In this document: piece after piece, positions 2,640 through 39,992 of the stretch
Position numbering within the stretch: the first letter of the stretch is position 1
Layout: each line of letters begins with the position of its first letter
Assembly (NCBI GenBank): GCA_963705155.1
Contig: CAVPJC010000001.1
Location: 292,392 to 356,391, forward strand
Origin: an uncultured Chloroflexia bacterium
Lineage (GTDB): Bacteria; Chloroflexota; Anaerolineae; Anaerolineales; UBA4823
DNA: 64,000 nucleotides
Reading direction: 5' to 3'
Program-made: the position numbers and the translations under genes
The notes under the pieces: generated by a model
Seen by the model: the letters and a program-made list of their open reading frames with translations, nothing else
The model's database searches: none
What the model was told of the DNA's origin: nothing

Positions 2640-2951
2640 ATGCAAATGCGATGATGGAGGAAAGTAAACTGGCGAAAGCCAACAGGGAGGCGGGCGCTGC
2701 AGAATGCAGCGCATCTGGGCAAAGACTGAGACCCCCGCCCGGTGGAACCCGGTTGAAGTTCCCTTCGGAGCAGCTCAAGTGAACGGGTAACAGGCGTTAC
2801 CAGCAGTAGTTTGAGCCGCAGCCTCAGCGTTAGAGGAGGAGAATTGAGCAAGTTTTCTCGATTTATCAAGCGAGCCGGCTGTGACCGGCTAACTCGGGTG
2901 GTACCGCGGGAAATTTCATCCCGTCCCAGGTGAGGGGCGGGTGTTTTTTTT
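2640..2951 (+). promoter_or_regulatory. T-box leader (tRNA-sensing riboswitch) controlling pheS-pheT
   Basis: The Stem I base resembles UGCGAUGAUGG...AAGUA (2645-2668), and a GGUGGAA distal-loop-like motif sits at 2741-2747. The canonical T-box sequence AACUCGGGUGGUACCGCGGG is at 2891-2910. A terminator hairpin and a U-run follow immediately. UUC triplets at 2759-2761 and 2764-2766 are candidate Phe specifiers, but I could not resolve which. Confidence 0.75.
2920..2951 (+). terminator. T-box attenuator/terminator hairpin
   Basis: CCCGTCCC (2920-2927) pairs with GGGGCGGG (2934-2941) and is followed by TGTTTTTTTT. The 5' arm can alternatively pair with the T-box GGGUGG segment to form the antiterminator. 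Confidence 0.75.
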
Positions 2952-2973
2952 AATGACAGATATAGGAGGATCT

Positions 2974-4034
2974 ATGTTAGATGATTTAAGCCAGATCGAA
3001 AAAGCCGCCCTGGCGGCACTGGGCAGTGTACAGGATGACGCCTCTCTGGAGGCCTGGCGTGTAGCCCACCTGGGCCGCAGTGCGCCAATCATGCAGGCTT
3101 TTGACCGGCTGGGACAACTCCCCAAAGAAGAGCGCCCTGCCATTGGGCGCCGCGCCAACGAGGTCAAGCGCGCCATCGAAGCCGCCCTGGCCGAACGCCT
3201 CGAAATCATGCGCCAGGCGACCCTGCAGCGCACCCTGCAAGCCGAGCGCCTGGATGTGACCCTGCCGGGCCGCCCCAGACCCTCGGTCGTTTGCATCCTG
3301 CCACCCGCACCCTGCGCGAGATTTGCCGCGTGTTCGGCGAGATGGGTTTCCAGGTCTACCGCTCGCCAGAGGTGGAAACCGACGAAATCAATTTCCAGCT
3401 GCTCAACTTCCCGGTGGGGCACCCGGCCCGTGAAATGCAGGATACCTATTTCGTGGAAAGCAGCCGGGCGCGCGGTGACAACCCCATTCTCATGCGCACA
3501 CACACCTCACCCGGGCAAATCCGCGCCATGCGCGAGTATTCGGCTGAAAACCCGGACAACCCACCGCCGGTGCGCCTCATCCTGCCGGGTATGTGCTTTC
3601 GCTACGAACAGATCACCATCCGCCACGAGATGCAGTTCAACCAGGTGGAAGTGTTGGCGGTGGGTGAAAAGATCACCTTTGGCGACCTCAAAGGCACCGT
3701 CAGCGAGTTTGCCCGCCGCATGTTCGGGCAAAATGTGCACACGCGCTTCCGCGCCTCATATTTCCCCTTCACCGAGCCCAGCGCCGAGGTGGATGTGGAG
3801 TGCTTCGTGTGCGGCGGCAGCGGCTGCGGCGTGTGCAAAGGCTCCGGCTGGCTCGAGATCATGGGCTGCGGTATGGTACACCCGGTGGTGCTGCAAAACG
3901 GCGGCTATGACCCTGCCCGCTACAGCGGTTTTGCCGCTGGCATGGGCCCGGAGCGCATCACCATGCTGCGCCACCGCATTGACGACATCCGCTCTTTCTG
4001 GGCGAATGATATGCGGTTTTTGGAACAGTTTTGA
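2974..4034 (+). CDS. pheS: Phenylalanine--tRNA ligase alpha subunit (frame broken once, near 3270)
   Basis: AGGAGGA lies 4 nt upstream of ATG 2974. The N-terminal part (MLDDLSQIEKAAL...LDVTLPGRP) is in frame 1. The rest (LGRLHPATRTLREI...FPFTEPSAEVDV...) is the 3291..4034 ORF frame. Adding one C to the CCCC run at about 3270 restores ...LPGRPQTLGRLHP... Confidence 0.9.
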
Positions 4035-4035
4035 A

Positions 4036-4065
4036 AGAGAATCGGGAATAGAAATTAGAGATTCG
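4036..4065 (+). repeat. Left arm of an imperfect inverted repeat flanking the four-helix-bundle gene
   Basis: AGAGAATCGGGAATAGAAATTAGAGATTCG matches the reverse complement of 4533-4562 at 23 of 30 positions (hand alignment). Confidence 0.6.
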
Positions 4066-4083
4066 TCGATAAAAAAGGCTATT

Positions 4084-4584
4084 ATGAGCATTAAAGGATT
4101 GGAAAAACTGGAAACCTGGCGGAAGGCAAAGGACTTCTCGATAAAAATTTATCGAGAAGTTGTCCCATTACTGCCGCCAGAAGAAAAATGGGGGCTGAGT
4201 CAGCAAATCCGCAGGTCAGCTGTGAGCATCCCGGCCAACATTGCTGAAGGGTACGGGCGTTTTTACTACCAGGACAATGTTCGCTTTTGCTACAATGCAC
4301 GCGGCTCACTCACAGAAACGCTCAGTCATATTTCCATTGCTTATGAGCTTGGCTTTCTTCCCGAAGCGCTTTTTACGGAATTTGAAACACAAGGCGATGA
4401 TCTGATGCGTCTGATCCATGGCTATATCGCCTATCTGAAGCGCAGCAAACAGGGAGAGTCAGACCCTGGAAACGCCCGCGCGGTTCACGATGTTGGGGAG
4501 CCTTACATCGCTGAAGAACTGGATGAAGAGCACGATTCTCTATTCTCTAATCGCGATTCTCGTTTTTCTCAGGAGATCGACTAA
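4084..4584 (+). CDS. Four-helix-bundle protein (23S rRNA intervening-sequence protein family)
   Basis: MSIKGLEKLETWRKAKDF...QIRRSAVSIPANIAEGYGRFYYQDN...ARGSLTETLSHISIA carries the family hallmark NIAEG..R...GS..E. The gene is visibly lower in GC than pheS and pheT. Its stop overlaps the pheT start (TAATG). Confidence 0.8.
   Translation: MSIKGLEKLETWRKAKDFSIKIYREVVPLLPPEEKWGLSQQIRRSAVSIPANIAEGYGRFYYQDNVRFCYNARGSLTETLSHISIAYELGFLPEALFTEFETQGDDLMRLIHGYIAYLKRSKQGESDPGNARAVHDVGEPYIAEELDEEHDSLFSNRDSRFSQEID
4533..4562 (+). repeat. Right arm of the inverted repeat flanking the four-helix-bundle gene
   Basis: CGATTCTCTATTCTCTAATCGCGATTCTCG contains two CGATTCTC copies, complementary to GAGAATCG/GAGATTCG in the left arm. 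Confidence 0.6.
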
Positions 4585-7189
4585 TGAAAATACCCCTTTC
4601 CTGGCTTAAAGATTTTGTTGATATCGACCTGCCCCTCGAAGACCTGGCCCACCAGCTCACCATGGCCGGGCTGGAGGTGGAGGAGATTCGATGCGTGGGC
4701 CTGCCGCTGCCGGGCGACAATGCAGATGGCAGTTCCGGCGGGCATGCCCGCCCCCAGACCAGGCTCTCCGGGCTGGAATGGGATCCTGCCAAGATCGTCA
4801 CGGCCTCGGTTTCGGAGGTCATGCCTCACCCCAACGCCGACCGGTTGGTTCTGTGCAAGCTCTACGATGGCGAAGGCGAGCACATCGTGCTCACCGGCGC
4901 CCCCAACCTTTACCCCTACAAGGGCCTGGGACGGCTGGATAAACCGCTCAAGGTGCCCTATGCCCGTGAAGGTGCCCGCATTTACGATGGTCACCAGCCC
5001 GGCCAGGTGCCCACGACCCTCAAGCGCACCAAAATCCGCGGGGTCGAATCCTATTCCATGATCTGCTCTGAAAAAGAGCTGGGCATATCTGAAGAACATG
5101 AAGGCGTCATCATTTTTGATGAGGATGCCCCGGTGGGCGTCCCGCTGGTGGAATACATTGGCGATGCCGTGCTGGATATTTCGATACTGCCCAACACCGC
5201 TCGCGCCGCCAGTGTGCTCGGTGTGGCCCGTGAAGTGGCTGCCATCACCGGTAAACCGCTCAAAATCCCGCCGGATTACTTCGATATGCACGCCGCCGGA
5301 GGGCAGGTGCAGGCCCGGATCGAAATTCGCAATCCGCAGCTCAACCCGCGCTTTGTCCTGGGTCTGATCCGGGATATTCACATCGGCCCCAGCCCGTATC
5401 AAATCCAGCGCCGATTGCGCCTGGCGGGCATGCGCCCGATCAACAACATCGTGGATGCCACCAACTATGCCATGCTGGAGCTGGGCGAACCACTGCATGC
5501 CTTCGATTACGATGTGCTGGTGCAGCGCGCCGCCGGGGCTGCACCCACCATCATCACCCGCACCGCCCACCCCGGCGAGCGCTTGACCACCCTGGATGGC
5601 GTGGAGCGCAGCCTGGATGAAACCACCGTGCTGGTGTGTGATACCGCCGGCCCGCTTTCCATTGCCGGCGTCATGGGCGGCGCTGAAACCGAGGTGAGCG
5701 CAAATACCCGCAGTGTGCTGCTGGAGGGCGCCTCCTGGAATTTCATCAATATTCGCAAGACGGCCCAGGCGCAGAACCTGCCCTCCGAGGCCAGCTACCG
5801 CTTCTCGCGCGGCGTCCATCCGGCTCAGGCAGAACGCGGCGTGCGCCGCGGCCTGGAACTGATGCGCCGGTGGTCAGGCGGTGAGGTGGCGCAGGGCCTG
5901 GTGGATAACTACCCCCTCCCGCCGCAGGATCCACAGGTACCAATTACTCCTGCTGAGGTAAAGCGCTTGCTGGGCATCACCCTGACGGCTGTAGAAATTG
6001 CCGCCCTGCTGCGCCGCCTTGAATTTACCGTTGAGCTGGATGGCGACACAGTGCGCGCAACCACGCCCGATCACCGGCTGGATATCGGCGTGGGCATTAC
6101 CGGCGCAGCCGACCTGGTGGAGGAGATCGCCCGCGTCTACGGATACGACAACATCCCCGCCTCCCGCCTGGCCGATGAACTCCCCCCGCAGCGCGGCAAC
6201 CCTTCGCTGGAAAGCGAAGACCGCATTCGCGACCTGCTGGTCTATCTGGGCTTCCAGGAAGTAATCAGCTACCGGCTGACCTCCCCCGAGCGGGAAGCGC
6301 GCCTGTTTCCATCCGCGGCTGTTCACGGACCTGGTGAGGCTGCTCAGGAAGATTTTGCCACCCGGGGCAGCCTTATGTGCGCCTGGCGAACCCCATCGCC
6401 AGCGACCGCGCTGTGCTGCGCCAGAGCCTGCTCTCCAGCGTGATGGAGGTGATGGAGCGCAACGCCCGCCTGCGCCAGCGCATGGCGCTCTTTGAAATCG
6501 GGCCTGTCTTCCAGCATACAGGTGAAGACGACCTGCCGCGCGAGCCGCAGCGCGTGGCTTTGCTGCTGGCAGGTCCACGCTCCGCCCCCGGCTGGCAGCC
6601 TGCCGATACGGCCCCAATGGATTTTTATGATCTGAAAGGTGTGCTTGAAGCGCTGCTGAACAGCCTGCACATCCCGGACATTCGATTCGAGCCGGGCGCT
6701 CACCCCTCCTACCACCCGGGCAAATGCGCCCGCATTCTCTCGGGCAGTCAGCTACTGGGCATCAGTGGCGAGCTGCACCCCCTGGCGCGCGCCGGTTACG
6801 ACCTGCCGGTTACTCTTGCTGCTACCCCGCTGCTGGCTGCCGAGCTGGATCTTGACGCGCTTCAAAGTCTCATCCTTATCCTGTATGATTCGCTCCCCGT
6901 GCCAGAATTCCCGCCCGTACTGGAAGATCTGGCCGTGGTGGTCGAAGAAGGCTTGCCTGCCGAGCGTGTCGAACAGGTCATCCGCGCCGCCGGCGGGAAG
7001 ACCGTCACCAGTATCCGCCTGTTCGATGTTTACCGCGGCGGACAGGTGGGCGCCGGCATGAAGAGCCTGGCTTACAGCCTCACCTACCAGGCTGCAGACC
7101 GCACCCTGACGGACAAAGAAGCCGCACAGGTGCGCCAGCGTGTCATCCGCCAGTTGGAGCAGGAGCTGGGAGCAAAATTGAGGGCCTGA
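4584..7189 (+). CDS. pheT: Phenylalanine--tRNA ligase beta subunit (two frame breaks near 6310-6370)
   Basis: MKIPLSWLKDFVDIDL... is the classic PheT N-terminus, followed by B3/4 and B5 regions. The C-terminal part continues as ORF 6377..7189 (YVRLANPIASDRAVLRQSLL...). The intermediate frame reads PRLFTDLVRLLRKILPPG, and removing one G from the GGGG run at about 6365 gives ...ILPPGQPYVRLANP. Confidence 0.9.
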
Positions 7190-17253: not shown

Positions 17254-17625
17254 TCACTCTCTTGGTTTGGGCTTGTTCGTGCGGTAACCGGCCCGCTTCC
17301 AGGCGCCCACGCCGCCCTGCAGGCTGTAAGCCTGGTAACCGCGGGCGCGCAGCCAGCGCACACCCGGCAGGCTGCGGTGTCCGCTGAGACACAATACCAC
17401 CACCGGACGGGAAGCATCCAGCTTCAGGCGTTCCATAGAAGCGGGCATACCGGTCAGCGGGGCATGCCTGGCCGAGCCAATGGTTCCCTGTTCATATTCA
17501 ACCCGGCTGCGCGCATCTGCAAGCTGCACTGGCTGGCCTGCCTTCAGCCAGTCCTGCAATTCTTTCGGGTTCACTTCGGGCACCCTGCCCACCGGCAGCC
17601 ACCAGAAATATGCTGCCAGCTTCAT
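17254..17625 (-). CDS. Rhodanese-domain sulfurtransferase
   Basis: It has the CLSGHRS active-site loop and is single-rhodanese length. Its start overlaps the OsmC stop. Confidence 0.85.
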   Translation of the reverse strand: MKLAAYFWWLPVGRVPEVNPKELQDWLKAGQPVQLADARSRVEYEQGTIGSARHAPLTGMPASMERLKLDASRPVVVLCLSGHRSLPGVRWLRARGYQAYSLQGGVGAWKRAGYRTNKPKPRE

Positions 17626-18101
17626 GAGGTTTTCCCGGGCGTGTACACACCGCTCTTCACCAGGGCAGCCGTGTCATCGGTTTCTTCATAAATGTGGTAT
17701 TTCAATTCGATTGGAAATACCTGGCCCAGCATCGCCTGCGCCGGGCAATAGCGCGTGGCCGAAAGCTCAATGGCGCGCAGAACCGCTGTTTCATCAAGGC
17801 CCTGACCGGTCAATGTGTATTCGATCACCGCGCTGGTAAAAACCCTGGGATGCTCCTGAGCCCGCACGGCATGCACTGCCACGTCAAACCGGGTGACCAC
17901 CTGGCGCTTCTTCTGCAAAATGGAGATCACATCCATCGCCGTGCAGCCCGCCAGCCCGGTGGCGATCAGCTCCATCGGGCGAAAACCATCTTCCGAGCCG
18001 CCTACAGCCGCCTCAGCCCCCAGGGGCACATTGAACCCGGTATCGGCCGAGCCATCAAAGCTCATGCCGCCCTTCCACTTTACGAGTGCATCCACAATCA
18101 T
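17622..18101 (-). CDS. OsmC-family peroxiredoxin-like protein
   Basis: 159 aa with GAEAAVGGSEDGFRPMELIATGLAGCTAMDV...SATRYCPAQAM, the two conserved OsmC cysteines. Confidence 0.85.
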   Translation of the reverse strand: MIVDALVKWKGGMSFDGSADTGFNVPLGAEAAVGGSEDGFRPMELIATGLAGCTAMDVISILQKKRQVVTRFDVAVHAVRAQEHPRVFTSAVIEYTLTGQGLDETAVLRAIELSATRYCPAQAMLGQVFPIELKYHIYEETDDTAALVKSGVYTPGKTS

Positions 18102-18685
18102 TCCTCCAGGAGCGGGGTGACGTACTTTTCCAACATCTCATCGTTGATCGCGCCCATCCAGGCCAGGCGCACGATGCCATCGCGATCTACAACATAGGAA
18201 GACGGCAGTGTATCCGTACGAAAAGCATCCAACGCCTTTTCGTCCGGGTCAGGCCACACCAGGAATGTGAGGCCATAATCGCGCGCAAAACGCGAAACAT
18301 CTCCGGGAGCGCTGCCTGCCTCAATGGCGATGATCGTAAAACGCTGCCTCTCATGCTTATCGAAATAGGCCTGCAGAGTGGGCATTTCTGCTTTGCAGGG
18401 CGGGCACCAGGTGGCCCAGTTGTTCACCAGCACCACCTGCCCACGGTGATCTGCCAGCGACACCGGGCTGCCGCCCAGGTCGGTCAGCTCGATCGGCGGA
18501 GCGGCGAAATTCACTTCGGCTGGTACTGTTACCGGCAGATCAGCCGGCGATTTTGCGCCAACCAGACCGGGCAGCAAGATGAATGCCGCAATCCCCAGAA
18601 CAACCAGCCCGCCTCCGATCAACGCCAGGGGCAGCACCTGAGAACGGCGGTTTACTCTGCGAGGGCGGGTTTTGGTTCTTTTCAT
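18098..18685 (-). CDS. TlpA/ResA-like membrane-anchored thiol:disulfide oxidoreductase
   Basis: An N-terminal TM anchor and VVLVNNWATWCPPCKAEMP (a WCxxC thioredoxin fold). Confidence 0.85.
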   Translation of the reverse strand: MKRTKTRPRRVNRRSQVLPLALIGGGLVVLGIAAFILLPGLVGAKSPADLPVTVPAEVNFAAPPIELTDLGGSPVSLADHRGQVVLVNNWATWCPPCKAEMPTLQAYFDKHERQRFTIIAIEAGSAPGDVSRFARDYGLTFLVWPDPDEKALDAFRTDTLPSSYVVDRDGIVRLAWMGAINDEMLEKYVTPLLEE

Positions 18686-18709: not shown

Positions 18710-19078
18710 CTAATGCTGGTGGATACGGCTCAGATCACTGGTGACACGCCCATCCATGAAAGCGCGCACAGCCGCCTCAATCTCACCACCGGTCATCACA
18801 ACATCCAACCCGGAGGAGCGCGCTTTCTGGTAAGCAGGTGTGCCCATGCCGCCGCACAGCAGCACTTTGCAATCGGCAATTGGGGCGAACATATCCTCAT
18901 GCCCGTGCGGCTGCCCGGATTGATGATCGGGATGCTGGCTGTGATGTGGTTTCAGGCGTTCTTCTTCAGCCAGGATGCGCCCGTTATCGATGGTAAATAC
19001 ACGGTAGGCGGGCGCCATACCAAAATGGCTGCTCAGGCTTTTCCCATCTTCTGTCACTGCGGCTATTTTATACGCCAT
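18710..19078 (-). CDS. NifB/NifX-family (dinitrogenase FeMo-cofactor-binding-like) small protein with a His-rich loop
   Basis: MAYKIAAVTEDGKSLSSHFGMAPAYRVF...CKVLLCGGMGTPAYQKARSSGLDVV, with an inserted HHSQHPDHQSGQPHGHED loop. Confidence 0.7.
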   Translation of the reverse strand: MAYKIAAVTEDGKSLSSHFGMAPAYRVFTIDNGRILAEEERLKPHHSQHPDHQSGQPHGHEDMFAPIADCKVLLCGGMGTPAYQKARSSGLDVVMTGGEIEAAVRAFMDGRVTSDLSRIHQH

Positions 19079-19102: not shown

Positions 19103-19792
19103 TCAGTTCTTCAGGGCGCGCCGGATTTCGGCAACCAGGTTGGCCTCAGGCACCGCGCCAACCACATTCCCGGCGCCATCATTAATGGTCGTCTGCGGCA
19201 CGCCGCTGACCGAATGCCGGTCTGAAAGCTCAGGGAACTCGATGGCTTCCACCATCTCGGCCTGCACAAAGGGACTTTCCATCGCCATCTGGTGAGCGAG
19301 CACCACGGCTCGCGGGCAGTAGGGTCAGGTTGGGGTGACGAATACTTGCAATAACACGGGCTCGCTTAAACCCTGGAGATACTGGCGGGTTTTTGCATCC
19401 AGTCCCGAATCGCGCCCGGAAACCAGCACCAGGTCATGGATCAGCGAGCTGAACTCATGACCGGAAGGAATGCCGGCCATGCGGATGCCGTAATCCAGCA
19501 CACCATCGCCATCTTGAGCTGCGATGACCAGGGTTGGGGCTTTATCCACATTGTACCGGGCGGCAGCCTCGGCATGCTCGTCAAGATCATATTTTTCCAG
19601 GCCGAGCTTATCCGAAATAGCCACCACCTCTTCCACCAGCTGGAGGGTATCGTCGCAGGTATCGCAGCCGTCCTTGCGCCCAAAATACAGCACCTGCACA
19701 GGCGCTACCAACTGCGCAAAAACCTCACCCACCTGCCGGACGATTTCATCATTCAGCAAACGTTCGTTCATATGGTGTAAATTTACTCCCAT
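19103..19792 (-). CDS. Two-domain glutaredoxin-like protein-disulfide oxidoreductase (PDO type) with an in-frame TGA at the first Cys of the second CxxC (candidate Sec)
   Basis: ORFs 19325..19792 and 19103..19306 are in the same frame, separated only by TGA 19325-19327. The first domain has the CDTC motif. The second motif reads VTPT-TGA-PYCPRAV, i.e. U/stop-PYC where PDO-type proteins have CPYC. Confidence 0.7.
19296..19313 (-). promoter_or_regulatory. Candidate bacterial SECIS hairpin
   Basis: On the mRNA, the stem GCGAGC-CGUGGU-GCUCGC begins 11 nt after the UGA. The stem is 6 bp and perfect, and the 6-nt loop contains GGU. Confidence 0.4.
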
Positions 19793-19822: not shown

Positions 19823-20017
19823 TCAGGTAAAACAGCCGCAGGAAACCTGCCCGCAGTTCGGGCAGGCCAGGTTGAGCAAACCATCATAATCCAGTGTTTG
19901 CTCTTTACACCTGGGGCACAAATCGCCGGCCTTCGGCGCCTGCTCCCGGGGCTGCGTCACAAGCGGCTGCAAAGCTGCCGGGCTGCTCACCGGCTTCTGA
20001 ACCGTTTTTATCTCCAT
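19823..20017 (-). CDS. Small zinc-ribbon protein (hypothetical)
   Basis: 64 aa, MEIKTVQKP...CPRCKEQTLDYDGLLNLACPNCGQVSCGCFT, with two CxxC pairs. It lies between the anti-sigma and PDO genes on the same strand. Confidence 0.45.
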   Translation of the reverse strand: MEIKTVQKPVSSPAALQPLVTQPREQAPKAGDLCPRCKEQTLDYDGLLNLACPNCGQVSCGCFT

Positions 20018-20060
20018 GCTGATTGGTTGCCAGACCCACCCGAAAGATGCCAGCCCGCCT

Positions 20061-20303
20061 TTACAGGAAATTATCCAGGTCCAGGCGGCGAAACAGACGC
20101 TGGCGAACCTCCTCAGGCGCGGAAACCCTGGCAGCCAATTCATGATACAGGCTGATCGTTTTGTTAAGGGTATCCACCACCACGCGGCAGTTTTCACAGC
20201 CTGCCAGGTGACGCTCGATCTCTGCGCAGATTTCATCCTGCAGGACCCCATCCACATAATCCGAGAGCGAACCCAGCAAATAGCGGCAGTTTTCGTGCTC
20301 CAT
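20061..20303 (-). CDS. Soluble zinc-binding anti-sigma factor (ZAS, RsrA-like)
   Basis: 80 aa with no TM helix. It has Cys6 and the H32-x3-C36-x2-C39 (HLAGCENC) motif. Its start abuts the sigma-factor stop. Confidence 0.8.
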   Translation of the reverse strand: MEHENCRYLLGSLSDYVDGVLQDEICAEIERHLAGCENCRVVVDTLNKTISLYHELAARVSAPEEVRQRLFRRLDLDNFL

Positions 20304-20911
20304 TATGTACGCTTCCCTTCAATTAATCGATCGCCGAAGTAGCCCGATAGATCTTCGCGCAGGTGCAGACGGGCGCGTGACAGGCGGGTTTTCACGGCTG
20401 TCTCACTCAAATTGAGCACATCGGCAGTTTCCTGTGTTGAAAGACCCTGGATGTCTCGCAATACGAAGACAACCCTCAGGCTGTCTGGCAATTGCCCGAT
20501 CGCCTCATCCAGGTGACGCTGCGCTTCGGCAGAAATAAACTCGGATTCAGGCAGGCAGCACCAATCTGCAATTTGCACCGGTTCCTGTTCGCCGTCTTCG
20601 GTTTTTATCGGCTCGTCCACCGAGACCATGTTGGGCTTGCTGCGCCTCAGCGCCATCAGGGCTTCATTGGTGGCGATACGGTATAACCAGGTGGAGATGC
20701 TGGAACGCCCGTCAAAATCTTTGATGTGTTTGAACGCCTTGATAAAAGTTTCCTGCAGCACATCCTCGGCATCCTGCTGGTCATTGAGCATCTTGCTTGC
20801 CAGACGGTAGATGAGCTCATAATTGCTCTCCACCAGCCGGGCAAATTCAGCCCGGTCGCCCGAACGCAGGGCTTCCAGGGATAAGGTCTCGGTTTTCTTG
20901 CCGTTGCTCAT
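20303..20911 (-). CDS. ECF-family RNA polymerase sigma-70 factor
   Basis: Region 2 is YRLASKMLNDQQDAEDVLQETFIKAF...STWLYRIATNEAL. Region 4 is VFVLRDIQGLSTQETADVLNLSETAVKTRLSRAR. I prefer the ATG at 20911 with an upstream AAGGA over the ORF-track start at 20965. Confidence 0.85.
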   Translation of the reverse strand: MSNGKKTETLSLEALRSGDRAEFARLVESNYELIYRLASKMLNDQQDAEDVLQETFIKAFKHIKDFDGRSSISTWLYRIATNEALMALRRSKPNMVSVDEPIKTEDGEQEPVQIADWCCLPESEFISAEAQRHLDEAIGQLPDSLRVVFVLRDIQGLSTQETADVLNLSETAVKTRLSRARLHLREDLSGYFGDRLIEGKRT

Positions 20912-21035
20912 TAGATGCATCCTTGACGAAAAGGTTACCGGTTCTGGCCTCGAAGATTTTATCATATTGACGGAGATTACCGCCTATGCTATAGTCCTGA
21001 CCAGACGATTGGTCTATACTGCGCTGGAGGCAGCC

Positions 21036-33162: not shown

Positions 33163-33269
33163 AAAAAAAAAACATGACGAAGGGCACTATTTTCATGTCA
33201 GGAAAACCTCTATGCTGATCTTGTCAAGGTCGTCCTCGCTCATTGCGCTGCATGCTGGAGGGAAAACTC

Positions 33270-36200
33270 ATGCATCACACGCCCGCCCGCCGCCTGACCC
33301 ACCTGATCCTGATCCTCTCGATGCTCCTGCCCGGACTGGCGCCCACGCCCACCCGGGCAGCTTCTTTGTACCAGGCCGGCGACGGCACGCCCACGCCCAG
33401 CGCCACACCGGAGGCGACTGAAACGCCCATCCCTTCCGAGACGCCAATTCCGGAAGTTACAGCGGAAGTCATCTCATCTACTCTGGAGATTCCATCACCG
33501 ACTGCCACACTGACGCCGACGTTGGATGTGACACCCACTCCCACGGCGACCGTGACACCTACGTTGCCCGCGCCAACCCCTATCATAACGACTACGAGCG
33601 TCCCAACTCCTGTGGAGACTGCGCCCGGTGGAGAAATCCTCGTCGCCGATCCTATGAGCCTGACCCTTAGTGCGGATGCTTCCCGTATCACTCCGGGCGG
33701 GGTGCTCAATCTATCCTGGCAGATCGACGGTTGGGCAGACAGTTATAAAGATGTATCTCTGGTCATCCAACCCCCTGCCGGTTTCAGCACTCTGGATGGC
33801 ACGCAGGGTGTTCTCGATGGACAGATCGGTCCCATTAGCCTTGCAGTGCTCTCTGCCGCTGATACGCTTCACTGGCAGATCCCGGCTGACCTGCCTGGTC
33901 CTTACACCCTGACCGCCATACTGAGCCAGGGCGGGAAAGCCATCACGACGCGCACAATTACCCTGCAGGAGACCGGCCTGACCCGCCTGCCTGTCGAAGG
34001 CGGAGTAGCCTCAGGATTAGGTGACCGAGTACGCGTCATTTTTCCCGCCCAGGTGGATGTCCAGATGCTGGATGTTCGCATCCGCCGACCGGTAGCTGCC
34101 TCCATGCCGCCCTACTCTCCCACCGGCGACCCTTTTGAGATCATCGCGCAGGCCAACGGCGAAGCCGTAGAAGCTTTTGACCCACCTCTCACCATCGAAG
34201 CGGCATACACCGGCTTGCGTCCCGCCCAGATCGCCTATTACGACCCTCTCCGGCAAGCCTGGCTGCCTCTCGAAACCGAATGGGATCAGGATGCCGGGGT
34301 GCTGCGCGCCCGGAGCAGCCACCTGACCGTCTTCGACACACCGGTCGTAGACTGGGAGACGGCCCGCACCCCCTCGGTGAAAGACTTCCAGGTCTCCCAG
34401 CAAACCGGGGCAGCCACGTACTCCTTCCCCATCTGGACCCCACCCGGCCTGGCCGGTTTGCAGCCAACATTGGCCCTGTCATACAACAGCCAGACCGCCG
34501 ACAGCGCCACCGCCCCCTACACTCAGGCTTCCTGGGTGGGCATGGGCTGGTCGCTGGATACCGGCTACATCCAGCGCAGCCAACACGCACCCGATCATGA
34601 TACCTACTCGCTGCTGGCGGGTGGGGTCAGCTCGAGCCTGCTGAAGGATAATACCGGCAAATACCACCTGGCCGACGAGAACTACTGGAAAGTGGAGTAC
34701 GATGCGACCAACGACAAATGGACGGCCTGGGATAAAAACGGAACGATCTACCGTTTCGGCAAGAACGCCAACAACACCTACGACGCCCGCGCCCGTTTCC
34801 CGATCTGCAACTCCAACGGAACCATTTCCATGCGAACCTGGAACTGGCCGCTGGTGGAAGTGGAGAACATCTTCAGCCAGAAACTGAGCTACACCTACGA
34901 TTTGACCGACACCAAACGCACCGATTTGTGTGACGATACTCGCACCACGCATCTGGCCGTCTACCCGGAGTATATCACCTACCCCAACGGCAAGTACCGG
35001 GTCAAATTCAATCTGGAAGAGCGCTACGACCACCGCCTGGAGTGGGAAGACAATAACGCTCAGACCTACTTCATGCACAAGCGCCTGAACACGATCGAGA
35101 TCCAACACAATGCGAGCGGAACCTGGCAGAGCGTACGCAGCTATGACCTGACTTACAACGCCGTCATCTTCCCCGGCTGGACATGGGATTACACCTACAA
35201 CGCCCGCACGTTCTCCCTGTCTGGCATCCAGGAAACCGGTCTGAACTCCGCCGCGCTGCCTGCCACCACCTTCAGCTATGCAGACGATCTGCACCTGACC
35301 CTGGCGGGCAATGGCTACGGCGGGAGCGTGGACTTCAGCTATGATCCCGTTTCGTGGTACGATCTCAGCAATGCTGAAGACCACATCCGCAAATATCATT
35401 TCGATCCAGGATCGGATGACTGCGATTCTTGGGACGGCGCCCAGTCTTCGTGTGACGCCCAGGAAGTCCTGCACATCGATGGCGAGGCGGTCCACCTTTT
35501 GCAGCCATCCGCGTTTGGGCCGGGCACAGCCTACAAGGTATCCGCCCGCATCTACAACGAGATCCAGACGGCGCAGAACGCCTCCATCGGTTTGCGCCAT
35601 GCCGCCAGCAGCAACAGCTACATCAGCGCATTGATCCCGGCTTACACATGGAAGGAATTCGAGGGGGTGGTGATCCTGCCTGCCGCTACGCAGTATGGCC
35701 GTGATTGGGAGTTTCGCCCGTTGATGGTGATGGCCTGCCCCAACTGCAAGGTGGAAGACTTCGAGATCACCTGGCTGCCCAGCCGCTACCGGGTAACGGC
35801 GCGCACCACCCACGACAGCGTCACCGGCGCCAGCCAGGTCTACCGCTACGAATACGACGACCCCGCCACCAACGACGCCGAGCACTCGGCCGCCGTGGCG
35901 GGCGAAGACCCGGAGGATGACGACGACCTGTATGATGATCCATATACGCAATACCGCGGCAATGCCATGAGCCGCGAGATTGGCCCGCTGGGAACGGACG
36001 GCACGCAGCGTGTGACCACCACCTGGTATGCCCAGGACGACGCCCGCAAGGGCCAGGCGCTGGGCACGCTGGTGGGCACGCAGTCCTACACCCAGACCTT
36101 CGAAGCCGACCAGTGGAGCGCCTACGCCAGTGACTGGAGCTACTGGAGCTCGAGGCAGATCGCACCGGCCTTCGAGCGCAAGAGCGGGGATGGCGCCCTT

Positions 36201-39200
36201 GTGGTCACCGAAGACTACGGCGAATGGAACAACACCGTGCACCGCAACGAGCACGCCGTCTCGGACGGAGAAGCCATCCTGGTGCAGTTCCAGATCACAG
36301 GCACCACCCCCGGCCAGTCCGAAGCGGTGCTGGCGCTGGAAGTGGGCGATTGGGGAGCCAGCTACCTGCGCTGGGGGGTGCAAGCCAACCTGGGCAGTGC
36401 ATTGTACGCCAGCTACTGCCTGGGAACGAGCTGCTACCACAACACTCTGGCCGATTTGAATTACTTCAAGAAAGGGGCCTGGTACAGCCTGCTGCTGGCG
36501 GTGGATGATGACCAGAAGTTCTTGATGCGCGTCTGGCCGCGCAGCGACCCCTCGGACGCTCGCGAGTACACCTTGAGCCACCCCAGCCTGCCGGGTAAGG
36601 ACTGGCGCTTTGCGGCCTACGCCAACCGCGCCCGGCTGCACCTGGACGAATACAGCGAAGGCAGGCTGTATTCACTCTCCACCACCGGCTATGACAGCGG
36701 CCTCGTCGCTCCCCTGGACGCCGCCTTCAGTGGCTTCCGGGATCTGGCGATCAACTGGACGCGCCCGGTGACCGCTTCGCAGATGAGCTTCAACGGCGAT
36801 GGAACCTGGATCGGCACGCGTACCATTTCTCTGTATGACCCCACCTACCAGAACGGAATCCAGTACGGCAACCAGACGGGTGTCGTCGAAGCCAGGTGGA
36901 GCGGCAGCGCCTGGCTGGATTACCGGGCTGTGCGCACCTGGTACTACCCCTACACCCAGAACGGCAAACACCTGGTGGGACTGCCGGCGGCGGTCAACCG
37001 CTACAAATGCGAGGACGCCGCCTGCGACTACGCCGATAGCGATCTGACCGCCTCGCAGTGGAACCTGTACGACGGGCAGAGCGGGTACTGGATCAGCCCG
37101 AGCAGCGGCAGGCTGACCGCCCAGCGCACAATGACCTGTTTTGCCGACGCCAACAAGGTATGTTATGCGACCTACCAGGCCAACCCAAGCTACGCCCTGT
37201 TCAGCGACCGTCAGTTCGAGTACGACGACTGGGGCAACCCGGTCAAGGTGAAAACCTCGCCGGACTACGGCTGGTTCCTGATGAGCTCGCCCTGGACCAG
37301 CCAACTGGCGAACACCAACCTGCGCGAAACCAGCTCGTGTTACGGCACAGCCAACCAACCCAGCGGCTGCACGGATGACGGCTACCACACCTACCGGCTG
37401 TGGGAGAAGAGCCCGCTGACGGCCAGCACAAACCAGACAGTCTACTGGTCGTATTCCGGTGCGCTGTGGCCCGGATCGAGCTACACCGGCTACAGCCTGG
37501 GCGTGCCGGTCAGCGAGACCGACCCCAACAGTGTAACCACCTGGGCCGAGTACGACGGCCTGGGACGCATGACCAAGGTGATCAAGCCCGGCGACAGCAG
37601 CGCCTACCCGACGCTGCAGGCGGTGTATCACGACGACTGGCAGCCCTTCCTGGTGGATGTGCACCAGCGCCTCACCGCGGGTACCGGCGCCACCTACAGC
37701 CAGCGCAAGCTCTACAACGGCCTGGGGCAGGTCATCCAGGTGCAGACGCCAGCGCGCCGAAGTCTCCGACAATGCCTGTTCCACGGATGCCGATACCAAC
37801 CCGGATGTCTGCGATCTGATCGTGGATACGGCTTACGACGGCTACGGGCAGGTCAATGCACAGACCGTACCCTACGCCCTGGACGACTGGTATTCGGGCA
37901 TGCCGGGGTATCCCACCCCCTCCGCGGGCAGAATTTCATCGGCAGCCCGCGCAACTACACCGCCACGGTCTACGACGTTCTGGGCCGCACGAACAGCGTG
38001 ACCGCCCCGGACGGGACCGAGCACGCTGACCGGCTACCCGGATACTTCTGCGGGCTATGCGGCTTACAACGAAGTGCGCCTGCAGGACGCCCGCGGCAAC
38101 ACCACGCGTACCATTTCGGACGTGTGGGGCCATGCCTATCAGGTCATCCCGCTCAATGGGAATAACGACGGCAGCCCGATCAACCCCACCGTGGCCTACA
38201 CCTACGATGCGCTCGACCGGCTTCTGACCGCCGCCCGCGGCGGAGCCACCGTCAGCCTGAGCTACGATTACGCCGGGCGGATGACGCAGCAGATCGACCC
38301 CGATCTGGGCACATGGGTTTATACTTATAACGCCATGGGAAACCCGACCAGCCGGAAAGACGCCCGTTGCAATGGCAGCAGTTGCGTGACGATCAACTAT
38401 GCCTACGACCACGCCAGCCGCCTGACGCAGAAGGGCTACAGCATCCCCACCGGGTTGAATGTGGCGGCAACCCCCGCGGCGACCTACTTCTACGACGCCG
38501 GGGGAGCGGCAGCCTACGCCATTGGCAGGCGCACCAGCATGACGGATGGCAGCGGCTCGACGACCTGGACGTATGACAGCCGCGGGCGCATGACCCAGGA
38601 GAGCAAGGTCATCAGTGGATCAGGCACCTTTGTGACCCAGTACACCTACAACTCCGCCGACCTGCCGGTAACGATGCGCTACCCGGCGAATGCCAGCGGT
38701 GGATTGGGTGAGACCGTCACCACCACCTACCTGCCGCAGAGACTGGTCAACAGCGTGATCGGCGCCAACACCTACGTCAAATCCAGCACCTACGACGCCG
38801 CCGGGCGGGTGGACGTGCGCCTGCTGGGCGACAGCAGCGGCACGGCAGTGGTCAAGACCGATTTCGATTACTTCGCCTGGAGCGACGTCAACGGCAACGG
38901 GCGGCTCAAACGGATCAAGTCGGAAGATGTGTCACCGTTGACCACGCTGCAAGACTTGCGCTATTACAACACATCCACCGGGGCATCCTTCTATGACGCC
39001 GTGGGCAACCTGACGCGCATCGACGACTACAAGAGCGGCGCGCCGCAAGGGCAGTATTTTGGTTACGACAACCTGTACCGTATCACCAGCGCCTACGCTT
39101 CGGGCGGGACTGGTGGAAACGGCGATTACACCACCGAGAGCTACAATTATGACGCCACAACCGGCAACCTCACCAGCAAGAGCACGGTGGGCAGCTACAG

Positions 39201-39992
39201 TTACGGAACCCAGTCCAGCGGCTGCCTGGAAGGGGCGCTGGCGGCCCACCCGCATGCCGTGGTGACCACAGTGGGAACGACCACGACCACCTACTGCTAT
39301 GACAGGAACGGCAATATGACCCGCCGCGACCCGAGCGGCACGCCAGTATACAACTTCCAATACAACGCCGAGAACCAGATGACGGGGGTGAGCGGCACGG
39401 CCACGGCATCGTTCACATATGATGGCGACGGCAACCGGGTGAAGAGCACGGCAGGGGAGTGACCACCGCCCACGTGGGGGCGTATTTCGAATGGACCGGC
39501 AGCACGGTTACAATGAAGAAGTATTACAGCGCGGGCGGGGCGCGCGTGGCAGTGCGCACGGGGGGCAGCACGCTGGCCTTCATCCTGACCGACCACCTGG
39601 GGAGCACCAGCATCACCACGACCAGCGCCGGTGTGTTGAGCACCGACAACCGCTACAAGGCCTGGGGGGAGTCAAGATACGCCAGCGGGACGCTGCCGAC
39701 GAAGTTCACCTACACCGGGCAGTATTCGAATGTTGCCGAGTTTGGGCTGATGTTTTATGGGGCACGCTGGTACGACAGTTCGCTATCCAGGTTCGCGCAA
39801 GCCGATATCATCGTACCGCTGCAAAACCAGGGCGTGCAGGCGTGGGATCATTATGCGGCGATGAATAATAATCCGGTCAGGTACAACGATCCGAGCGGGC
39901 ATATGGCGGTTTGTCCGGATTGCGGGGGTGGAGGGAATATTTCTGATCAAGAAAAGCTGGAAAGATCCGCTATGCTCGTGCGGCACAAGTAA
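33270..39992 (+). CDS. Secreted giant Rhs/YD-repeat polymorphic toxin (SpvB/TcB-like N-region, YD shell, RHS core); at least 5 frame breaks as assembled
   Basis: GGAGGG precedes ATG 33270. The signal peptide is MHHTPARRLTHLILILSMLLPGLAPTPTRAAS, followed by a Thr/Pro-rich linker. The SpvB-type motif is [29 protein letters not shown]...GMGWSL. Dozens of YD repeats follow (YTYDALDRL, YDYAGRM, YTYNAMGNP...). The RHS core is FTYTGQYSNVAEFGLMFYGARWYDSSLSRFAQAD...NNPVRYNDPSGH. The pieces are ORFs 33243.., 37657.., 38074.. and 39459... Confidence 0.85.

Follow-up and report, generated by a model that had tools for sequence, protein, structure and literature searches.

We analysed a 64-kb stretch of DNA from an uncultured member of the Anaerolineales (Chloroflexota), referred to here as the window, which carries on its minus strand a gene for a two-domain protein disulfide oxidoreductase (PDO) whose reading frame contains a TGA. 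Two open reading frames (ORFs), 19325..19792 and 19103..19306, share one frame in which the TGA at 19325-19327 is the sole interruption. The minus-strand translation around it reads ...LLQVFVTPT-[TGA]-PYCPRAVVLAHQMAMESPFV..., and the residues that follow on the C-terminal side of the read-through product are PYCPRAVVLAHQMAME. A sequence-only reading of the window had placed this TGA in frame at the first Cys of a CPYC motif, had noted an intact CDTC motif, and had proposed that the TGA is a selenocysteine (Sec) codon and not a stop. Both motifs were found where that reading had put them, and the results described below make it very probable that the in-frame TGA encodes Sec. The features of the gene are the following.

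19103..19771, minus strand: predicted PDO-type selenoprotein gene of 222 codons (MNERLL...ALKN) with Sec at residue 149, delimited by the TIGR02187 match, the alignment with 1A8L and the orthologue starts
19655..19666, minus strand: CDTC, the CxxC of the N-terminal thioredoxin-fold unit (Cys36 and Cys39), from the translation and the orthologue alignment
19325..19327, minus strand: in-frame UGA, predicted to be read as Sec149, at the first position of the C-terminal U-P-Y-C redox motif, from the orthologue column (TGA, TGC or TGT)
19316..19318, minus strand: Cys152 (TGC), probable resolving Cys of the UxxC motif, invariant among the orthologue motif matches
19296..19313, minus strand: predicted selenocysteine insertion sequence (SECIS) hairpin within the coding sequence, with the 5' arm GCGAGC at 19313-19308, the loop CGUGGU at 19307-19302 and the 3' arm GCUCGC at 19301-19296

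The common frame of the two ORFs stood as first proposed, but the start at ATG 19792 did not. Since the orthologues begin with M-x-E-K-L-L, which favours ATG 19771 over the in-frame ATG upstream of it, the alignment indicates that translation probably starts at ATG 19771 and not at ATG 19792. At the other end, the gene is terminated by a TGA of its own (19103-19105). Because TGA ends the PDO gene itself and also serves as an ordinary stop elsewhere in the window, where it closes 25 of the 47 largest ORFs, there is no genome-wide reassignment of this codon.

The translated product belongs to a well-defined protein family. With Cys put at the Sec position, the query scored 261.9 bits against TIGR02187 (curated cutoff 185), a profile that NCBIfam names 'PDO_seleno_TRX, protein disulfide oxidoreductase', and residues 15-225 were aligned to profile positions 2-208 of 209. 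The Pfam matches (Thioredoxin on residues 46-93, Thioredoxin_3/Glutaredoxin on residues 148-223) placed thioredoxin or glutaredoxin folds in both halves, so that the protein consists of two tandem thioredoxin-fold units with the [C/U]PYC motif of the family in the C-terminal one. Its best solved relative is the PDO of Pyrococcus furiosus (1A8L, E 2.7e-44, residues 15-217 aligned), followed by the PDOs of P. horikoshii, Aquifex and Aeropyrum and then by the N-terminal domains of AhpF. The archaeal and Aquifex PDOs (1J08, 2AYT, 2YWM and 2HLS, together with 1A8L; E 2.7e-44 to 3.6e-30) resemble the window protein over their full length, and share with it the two thioredoxin-fold units, the FVTPT-C-PYCP stretch and a CxxC in the N-terminal unit, but they have Cys where the window protein would have Sec. 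In the alignment with 1A8L, FVTPTCPYCP corresponds to FVTPT-U-PYCP with no other difference, and by this comparison the TGA occupies the place of the first Cys of the C-terminal CPYC active site. Selenoproteins of the TIGR02187 type have been reported in Carboxydothermus hydrogenoformans and Symbiobacterium thermophilum (Zhang et al. 2006), and ABB15282.1 is the example listed for this UxxC family in reviews. These known PDO selenoproteins share with the window protein the same hidden Markov model family, a UxxC motif with a single Sec and the two-thioredoxin-fold architecture, and differ from it in lineage, the window gene coming from an uncultured member of the Anaerolineales.

The sequence-only reading had suggested looking for alternation between Cys and Sec among orthologues. 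We therefore collected 80 loci from GTDB, with one genome per species, and 80 more from JGI metagenome contigs, and counted the codons in the aligned column over the 152 full-length orthologues of both collections pooled. All 80 genome-contig loci came from Anaerolineales (Chloroflexota) metagenome-assembled genomes (MAGs) and were 62-76% identical to the query, the nearest relatives in either collection being about 76% identical. At exactly this column 84 of the 152 orthologues had TGA and 68 had TGC or TGT (for example, TGA in CP070639.1 and TGT in CP070764.1), so that the Sec forms account for about 55% of the orthologues sampled in the clade, and parsimony on a neighbour-joining tree required at least 11 changes between the Sec and Cys states. 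The N-terminal motif is conserved as a pair of Cys, the ten commonest versions in the alignment all being CxxC (CDYC, CEYC, CPYC, CETC, CDTC and others). Among the best 120 full-length database homologues the C-terminal motif could be located in 118, all of them Cys forms.

Moreover, the region beyond the TGA behaves as coding sequence. In all 84 TGA forms the frame 3' of the TGA is open for 71-83 codons, to the normal C-terminus, and includes the conserved GVPQT loop. Mean pairwise identity in this region is 73.5% among the TGA forms and 74.3% among the Cys forms, as against 62.6% in the region 5' of the TGA. A UGA aligned with the redox-active Cys of homologues, and followed by a conserved open frame, is what is expected of a selenoprotein gene. 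Since the frame is open and conserved in every TGA form, translation must get past the UGA, and this conservation argues strongly against a pseudogene, a pair of separate proteins and an isolated sequencing error; the sequence-only reading had named orthologues that end here as two separate proteins as a finding that would count against it, and none of the orthologues is organised in that way.

We then considered the hairpin that had been described downstream of the TGA, a perfect 6-bp stem starting 11 nt after the UGA with the loop CGUGGU, which was recovered as described and is also exactly what the centroid fold contains (-10.5 kcal/mol). The spacer is CCCUACUGCCC, and the conserved G of the loop, at loop position 2, is the 19th nucleotide after the UGA. 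In E. coli fdhF the minimal SECIS also lies 11 nt after the UGA and displays a G-U in its loop. Compared with bacterial SECIS elements such as that of fdhF, the window hairpin is set apart by a short, fully paired stem that has no bulged U and is not extended by a conserved lower stem. In the SelB-type bacterial SECIS, an intragenic hairpin just 3' of the UGA, the stem has 6-8 bp and the conserved loop G lies about 20 nt after the UGA (PMC4605307), at position 1 or 2 of the loop (PMC13582414); in location, stem length, and distance and position of the G, the window hairpin agrees with this geometry, which bears out the spacing argument made earlier. When both strands of the window were scanned for the same arrangement (a TGA in an open frame, a gap of 9-13 nt, a 6-bp stem and GU near the start of the loop) three sites were found, and only the PDO site falls in a recognisable gene. 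The other two were rejected: one is in a frame that matches no family and is not the frame of a PfkB gene, and one is antisense to grpE.

The evidence for the hairpin came from comparing the two classes of orthologue. For the genome contigs the 54 nt around the codon were aligned separately for TGA and Cys forms. Standard pairing was found in 98.3% of the stem cells of the TGA forms versus 71.4% in the Cys forms, and 5 of the 39 TGA rows carried compensatory double changes from G-C to A-U (Gln CAA together with Leu CTT); in the Cys forms of this set there were no double-sided stem changes, and pairing was no higher than in shuffles. The stem was perfect in 35 of 39 TGA but 3 of 39 Cys forms from genome contigs (Fisher 5.7e-14), and in 42 of 46 TGA but 2 of 29 Cys forms from metagenome contigs (Fisher 5.9e-14), that is, in 77 of 85 versus 5 of 68 over both collections. 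The same contrast extends to the individual codons. The hairpin spans the codons for R-A-V-V-L-A (CGA GCC GTG GTG CTC GC), and over both collections the loop began with CGUG in 83 of 85 TGA versus 3 of 68 Cys forms, Arg was encoded by CGA in 59 of 85 versus 4 of 68, Ala by GCC in 83 of 85 versus 12 of 68, and Val by GTG in 83 of 85 versus 36 of 68. The wobble position of the Pro codon right after the UGA is free of constraint. Since the peptide encoded by the hairpin is nearly identical in both classes while codons and pairing differ, selection acts on the RNA, and only where the codon is UGA. From this comparison we conclude that the hairpin is a predicted bacterial SECIS, under selection in the UGA-bearing orthologues only.

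One Cys form deserves separate mention. The genome-contig locus L029 (6582-6635) has TGT at the codon and keeps a perfect 6-bp hairpin with the loop UGUGGU, in a local peptide common to several TGA forms; it has the appearance of a recent return from Sec to Cys, with a fossil SECIS left behind.

Taken together, alternation at the codon, conservation downstream of it, a hairpin specific to the TGA forms and a family already recognised for its selenoproteins support the proposal that this TGA is a Sec codon and not a stop. The gene at 19103-19771 would then encode a cytoplasmic two-domain PDO, of the family that includes PDO and the N-terminal domain of AhpF, with the active site U-P-Y-C. The UGA at 19325-19327 would be recoded in translation, the 18-nt hairpin serving as the SECIS that brings SelB, with GTP and Sec-tRNASec, to the ribosome, where it would compete with release factor 2, and the hairpin itself would be maintained through codon choice. 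In the enzyme, Sec149 would be the attacking nucleophile and Cys152 would resolve the selenenylsulfide, with the N-terminal unit retaining an ordinary CxxC. The way in which Sec is encoded here brings no change to existing knowledge. The family has already been recognised as a UxxC selenoprotein family, and what appears to be unannotated is the Anaerolineales lineage and the extent of its Sec use.

Several results weigh against this interpretation. First, in-silico data cannot separate the insertion of Sec from that of Cys at a SECIS-dependent UGA. Second, the window contains indel errors in the essential genes pheS and pheT, so that from the window sequence alone a single-base error at the TGA is possible. 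Third, the fold energy of the 61-nt stretch around the hairpin is, for the window sequence alone, ordinary for DNA of 60% G+C (z = -0.33); since one sequence is thus insufficient to establish the hairpin, the case rests on the comparison. Fourth, the covariance-model check that had been suggested for the hairpin region came out negative, with no Rfam match up to E = 10 on 19230-19360, nor any match to the hairpin at gathering scores in a search of the whole window. Because bacterial SECIS elements are short and gene-specific, this lack of a match is expected and is no mark against SECIS function. Finally, the Sec machinery was not seen nearby: ARAGORN found no tRNA gene at all in the 64-kb window, and hence no tRNA-Sec there, and none in the 38 genome-contig loci with TGA; no SelA, SelB or SelD turned up when 20 large ORFs of the window were scanned with NCBIfam; and tblastn with the E. 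coli SelA, SelB and SelD sequences, used as probes only, gave none in the window or in L001-L080. This evidence on selA, selB, selD and tRNA-Sec covers the window and the flanks of the genome-contig orthologues. Elsewhere in these groups, SelB is encoded in single-cell genomes of Anaerolineales, together with formate dehydrogenases of the Sec type, and also in Anaerolinea thermophila (PMC4959059), and Chloroflexota MAGs carry Sec-type hydrogenases (PMC13582414). That the hairpin is kept by selection only beside UGA is itself evidence for a working SECIS-reading factor in these lineages. An all-against-all screen for Sec/Cys pairs in the window and in L001-L080 for other nearby selenoproteins gave, beyond the PDO, only antisense-frame artefacts, and a simple scan of the window for UxxC and CxxU was uninformative at 60% G+C.

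The alternative that survives best shares the hairpin with our interpretation and differs in the amino acid inserted. Under it, the UGA is recoded as Cys in a SECIS-dependent manner by a tRNAReC-type tRNA (SelC*, charged with Cys) delivered by SelB, acting alone or beside tRNA-Sec. Such a tRNA decodes UGA as Cys given a downstream SECIS, which is an inherent limit of in-silico selenoprotein calls (PMC13582414, 2026), and switching as frequent as the 11 or more events on our tree would meet little hindrance if UGA were in part interchangeable with UGC. However, no tRNAReC-type tRNA was seen in the window or in the orthologue flanks, among Sec-type genomes overall about 17% have tRNAReC-like tRNAs, which are found mainly with UxxU motifs (PMC13582414), and the window protein belongs to a recognised UxxC selenoprotein family, which argues against Cys insertion. 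We consider recoding as Cys by this route very unlikely, and the somewhat broader proposal that the UGA and its SECIS are decoded by a SelB-delivered tRNAReC-type tRNA either as Cys or as a selenium-dependent mixture of Sec and Cys would still be improbable. If it were true, the 11 or more Sec/Cys switches among the Anaerolineales PDO genes, within an RsrA-like thiol-stress operon, would be the trace of optional recoding adjusted to the supply of selenium.

Genuine termination at the TGA would give a 148-residue single-domain protein, perhaps accompanied by a C-terminal fragment initiated at GTG 19306. The 148-residue product is exactly what gene callers yield (UCH60650.1 and the JGI calls described below), and a GTG is indeed present in the hairpin loop. 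Against this, the sequence beyond the TGA is constrained in one frame throughout, by purifying selection no weaker than that on the Cys forms, initiation at GTG 19306 would by the alignment with 1A8L leave out both redox residues and the first beta-strand of the fold, and the covariation of the stem is explained by RNA structure and not by a start codon; termination here is thus highly improbable.

We give even less credence to a sequencing or assembly error, with TGC read as TGA, or to a fresh nonsense mutation in what would be a pseudogene, and regard both as hardly plausible. The frameshifts in pheS and pheT do resemble assembly errors, no independent copy of the window species was found, exact look-ups of three window proteins gave no match, and the exact 56-nt pattern around the TGA was unmatched in the metagenome contigs. 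But in the window the TGA comes with every other mark of the Sec forms, namely the codons CGA-GCC-GTG-GTG-CTC, a perfect stem and a loop starting CGUG, a combination that is rare in the Cys forms, where 5 of 68 have the perfect stem and 3 of 68 the CGUG loop start. Moreover, 11 of the 12 orthologues nearest to the window in the alignment are TGA forms, the nearest of all (L081) being a Cys form. As the sequence-only reading had pointed out, the TGA is a substitution-type difference, while the other lesions of the window are indels.

Near-cognate read-through of a leaky UGA-C stop, for example by insertion of Trp without SelB, can be dismissed as next to impossible: UGA-C is a leaky stop context and the base following the UGA is always C in the orthologues, but that C is dictated by the following Pro codon, Trp at the catalytic position would inactivate the enzyme, and the TGA-specific hairpin would be left unexplained.

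The PDO gene is the fourth of a co-directional cluster, whose other members are the following.

20303..20965, minus strand: sigma-70 factor of the extracytoplasmic function (ECF) type, first gene of the cluster, lying 5' of the PDO gene in 108 orthologous loci and on the same strand in about 90%
20061..20303, minus strand: zf-HC2 anti-sigma factor of 80 residues with H-x3-C-x2-C, RsrA-like (PF13490; 112 loci)
19823..20017, minus strand: small 64-residue ORF with a CPRC...CPNC zinc-ribbon-like tail, between the anti-sigma and PDO genes, the tail being conserved in 64 loci
18710..19078, minus strand: NifX/NifB-C-like gene with a dinitrogenase FeMo-cofactor-binding domain (PF02579), variable, in only 18 loci
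18098..18685, minus strand: ResA/TlpA-like thiol-disulfide oxidoreductase with WCPPC, present 3' of the PDO gene in 120 loci and always co-oriented with it
17622..18101, minus strand: OsmC-family protein (102 loci)
17254..17625, minus strand: single-domain rhodanese, variable, in 16 loci

The sigma factor, anti-sigma factor, PDO, redoxin and OsmC genes are syntenic in more than 100 of the 152 loci, in Sec and Cys forms alike. The anti-sigma factor matched PF13490 with 38.7 bits (cutoff 22.2) and contains the motif HLAGCENC. Its best NCBIfam match was TIGR03988 (antisig_RsrA), aligned over nearly the full length at 39.1 bits, below the cutoff of 62.5. It carries Cys6 and H32-x3-C36-x2-C39, a spacing which we take to match the zinc ligands of RsrA. 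In these respects the cluster is reminiscent of the SigR-RsrA thiol-stress system of actinobacteria, in which an ECF sigma gene likewise precedes that of a small soluble zf-HC2 anti-sigma factor with H-x3-C-x2-C, and in the window thiol-redox proteins are encoded downstream of the pair. It differs in belonging to another phylum and in that its anti-sigma factor, being under the TIGR03988 cutoff, is not a member of that family by score, and any redox sensing would be by analogy. The residues and the gene order suggest that the operon may be under redox-sensed control. Because the PDO gene sits in this conserved sigma/anti-sigma/redoxin/OsmC cluster, it is probably part of a thiol or oxidative stress response, in which the PDO, by its predicted activity, would act as a cytoplasmic reductant or isomerase. 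The OsmC-family protein is possibly a thiol-dependent hydroperoxide reductase and would be a candidate target of the PDO, and the hydrophobic N-terminal stretch of the ResA/TlpA-like protein looks like a membrane anchor.

We also considered whether the anti-sigma gene is frameshifted, given that ORFs 20061-20303 and 19823-20257 overlap. This was rejected, since in several orthologues too the two regions are out of frame with each other and since the ATG at 20017 is a start of its own for the small conserved zinc-ribbon ORF, for which no Pfam or NCBIfam family match was found.

The interpretation of the TGA has direct consequences for annotation. Five close TGA orthologues (L003, L004, L005, L009 and L018) are stored publicly as complete 148-residue products; among them UCH60650.1 is a 148-residue 'hypothetical protein JSV61_03995', corresponding to L003 10001-10654 on the 3.59-Mb chromosome CP070639.1, and in the JGI records the 148-residue calls are named 'glutaredoxin-like protein'. 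Since the Sec-form orthologues are stored as such stubs, selenoprotein use in the Anaerolineales is under-counted. If the codon is read as we propose, the PDO gene of the window is not broken and would be annotated as one 222-residue selenoprotein, with a transl_except for Sec at codon 149. The 84 Sec and 68 Cys orthologues, with their repeated switches, would form a clean natural experiment on the exchange of Sec and Cys, and the compact 18-nt SECIS, whose constraints can be read from synonymous sites, would be useful for studying minimal recognition by SelB.

Other features of the window lie away from the PDO cluster. On the plus strand a T-box leader (RF00230, 99.7 bits) occupies 2642-2931, directly 5' of pheS. 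The pheS gene, also on the plus strand, is apparently split by a frameshift, with PF02912 in the frame of ORF 2941-4584 and PF01409 (E 5.6e-87) in that of ORF 3291-4034; because pheS is essential, this is probably an assembly indel error. Between pheS and pheT, at about 4100-4440 on the plus strand and in the frame of ORF 2941-4584, lies a gene for a 23S rRNA-intervening-sequence protein with a four-helix bundle (PF05635, TIGR02436). The pheT gene is divided over the overlapping plus-strand ORFs 4584-6443, with B3_4, B5 and tRNA_bind, and 6377-7189, with FDX-ACB and the bulk of the core domain (profile positions 62-212 of 214); this, too, is likely an indel error, the second to affect an essential gene.

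On the minus strand, the 389-residue ORF at 31986-33155 matches PfkB in its C-terminal part only (residues 218-364 on profile positions 150-295) and may be another frameshifted gene. Finally, 33243-39462 on the plus strand holds a 1640-residue ORF with a faint SpvB-like match, followed by an overlapping 462-residue ORF with YD repeats; taken together they resemble an Rhs/Tc-type toxin locus that may also be interrupted by a frameshift near 38074-38165.

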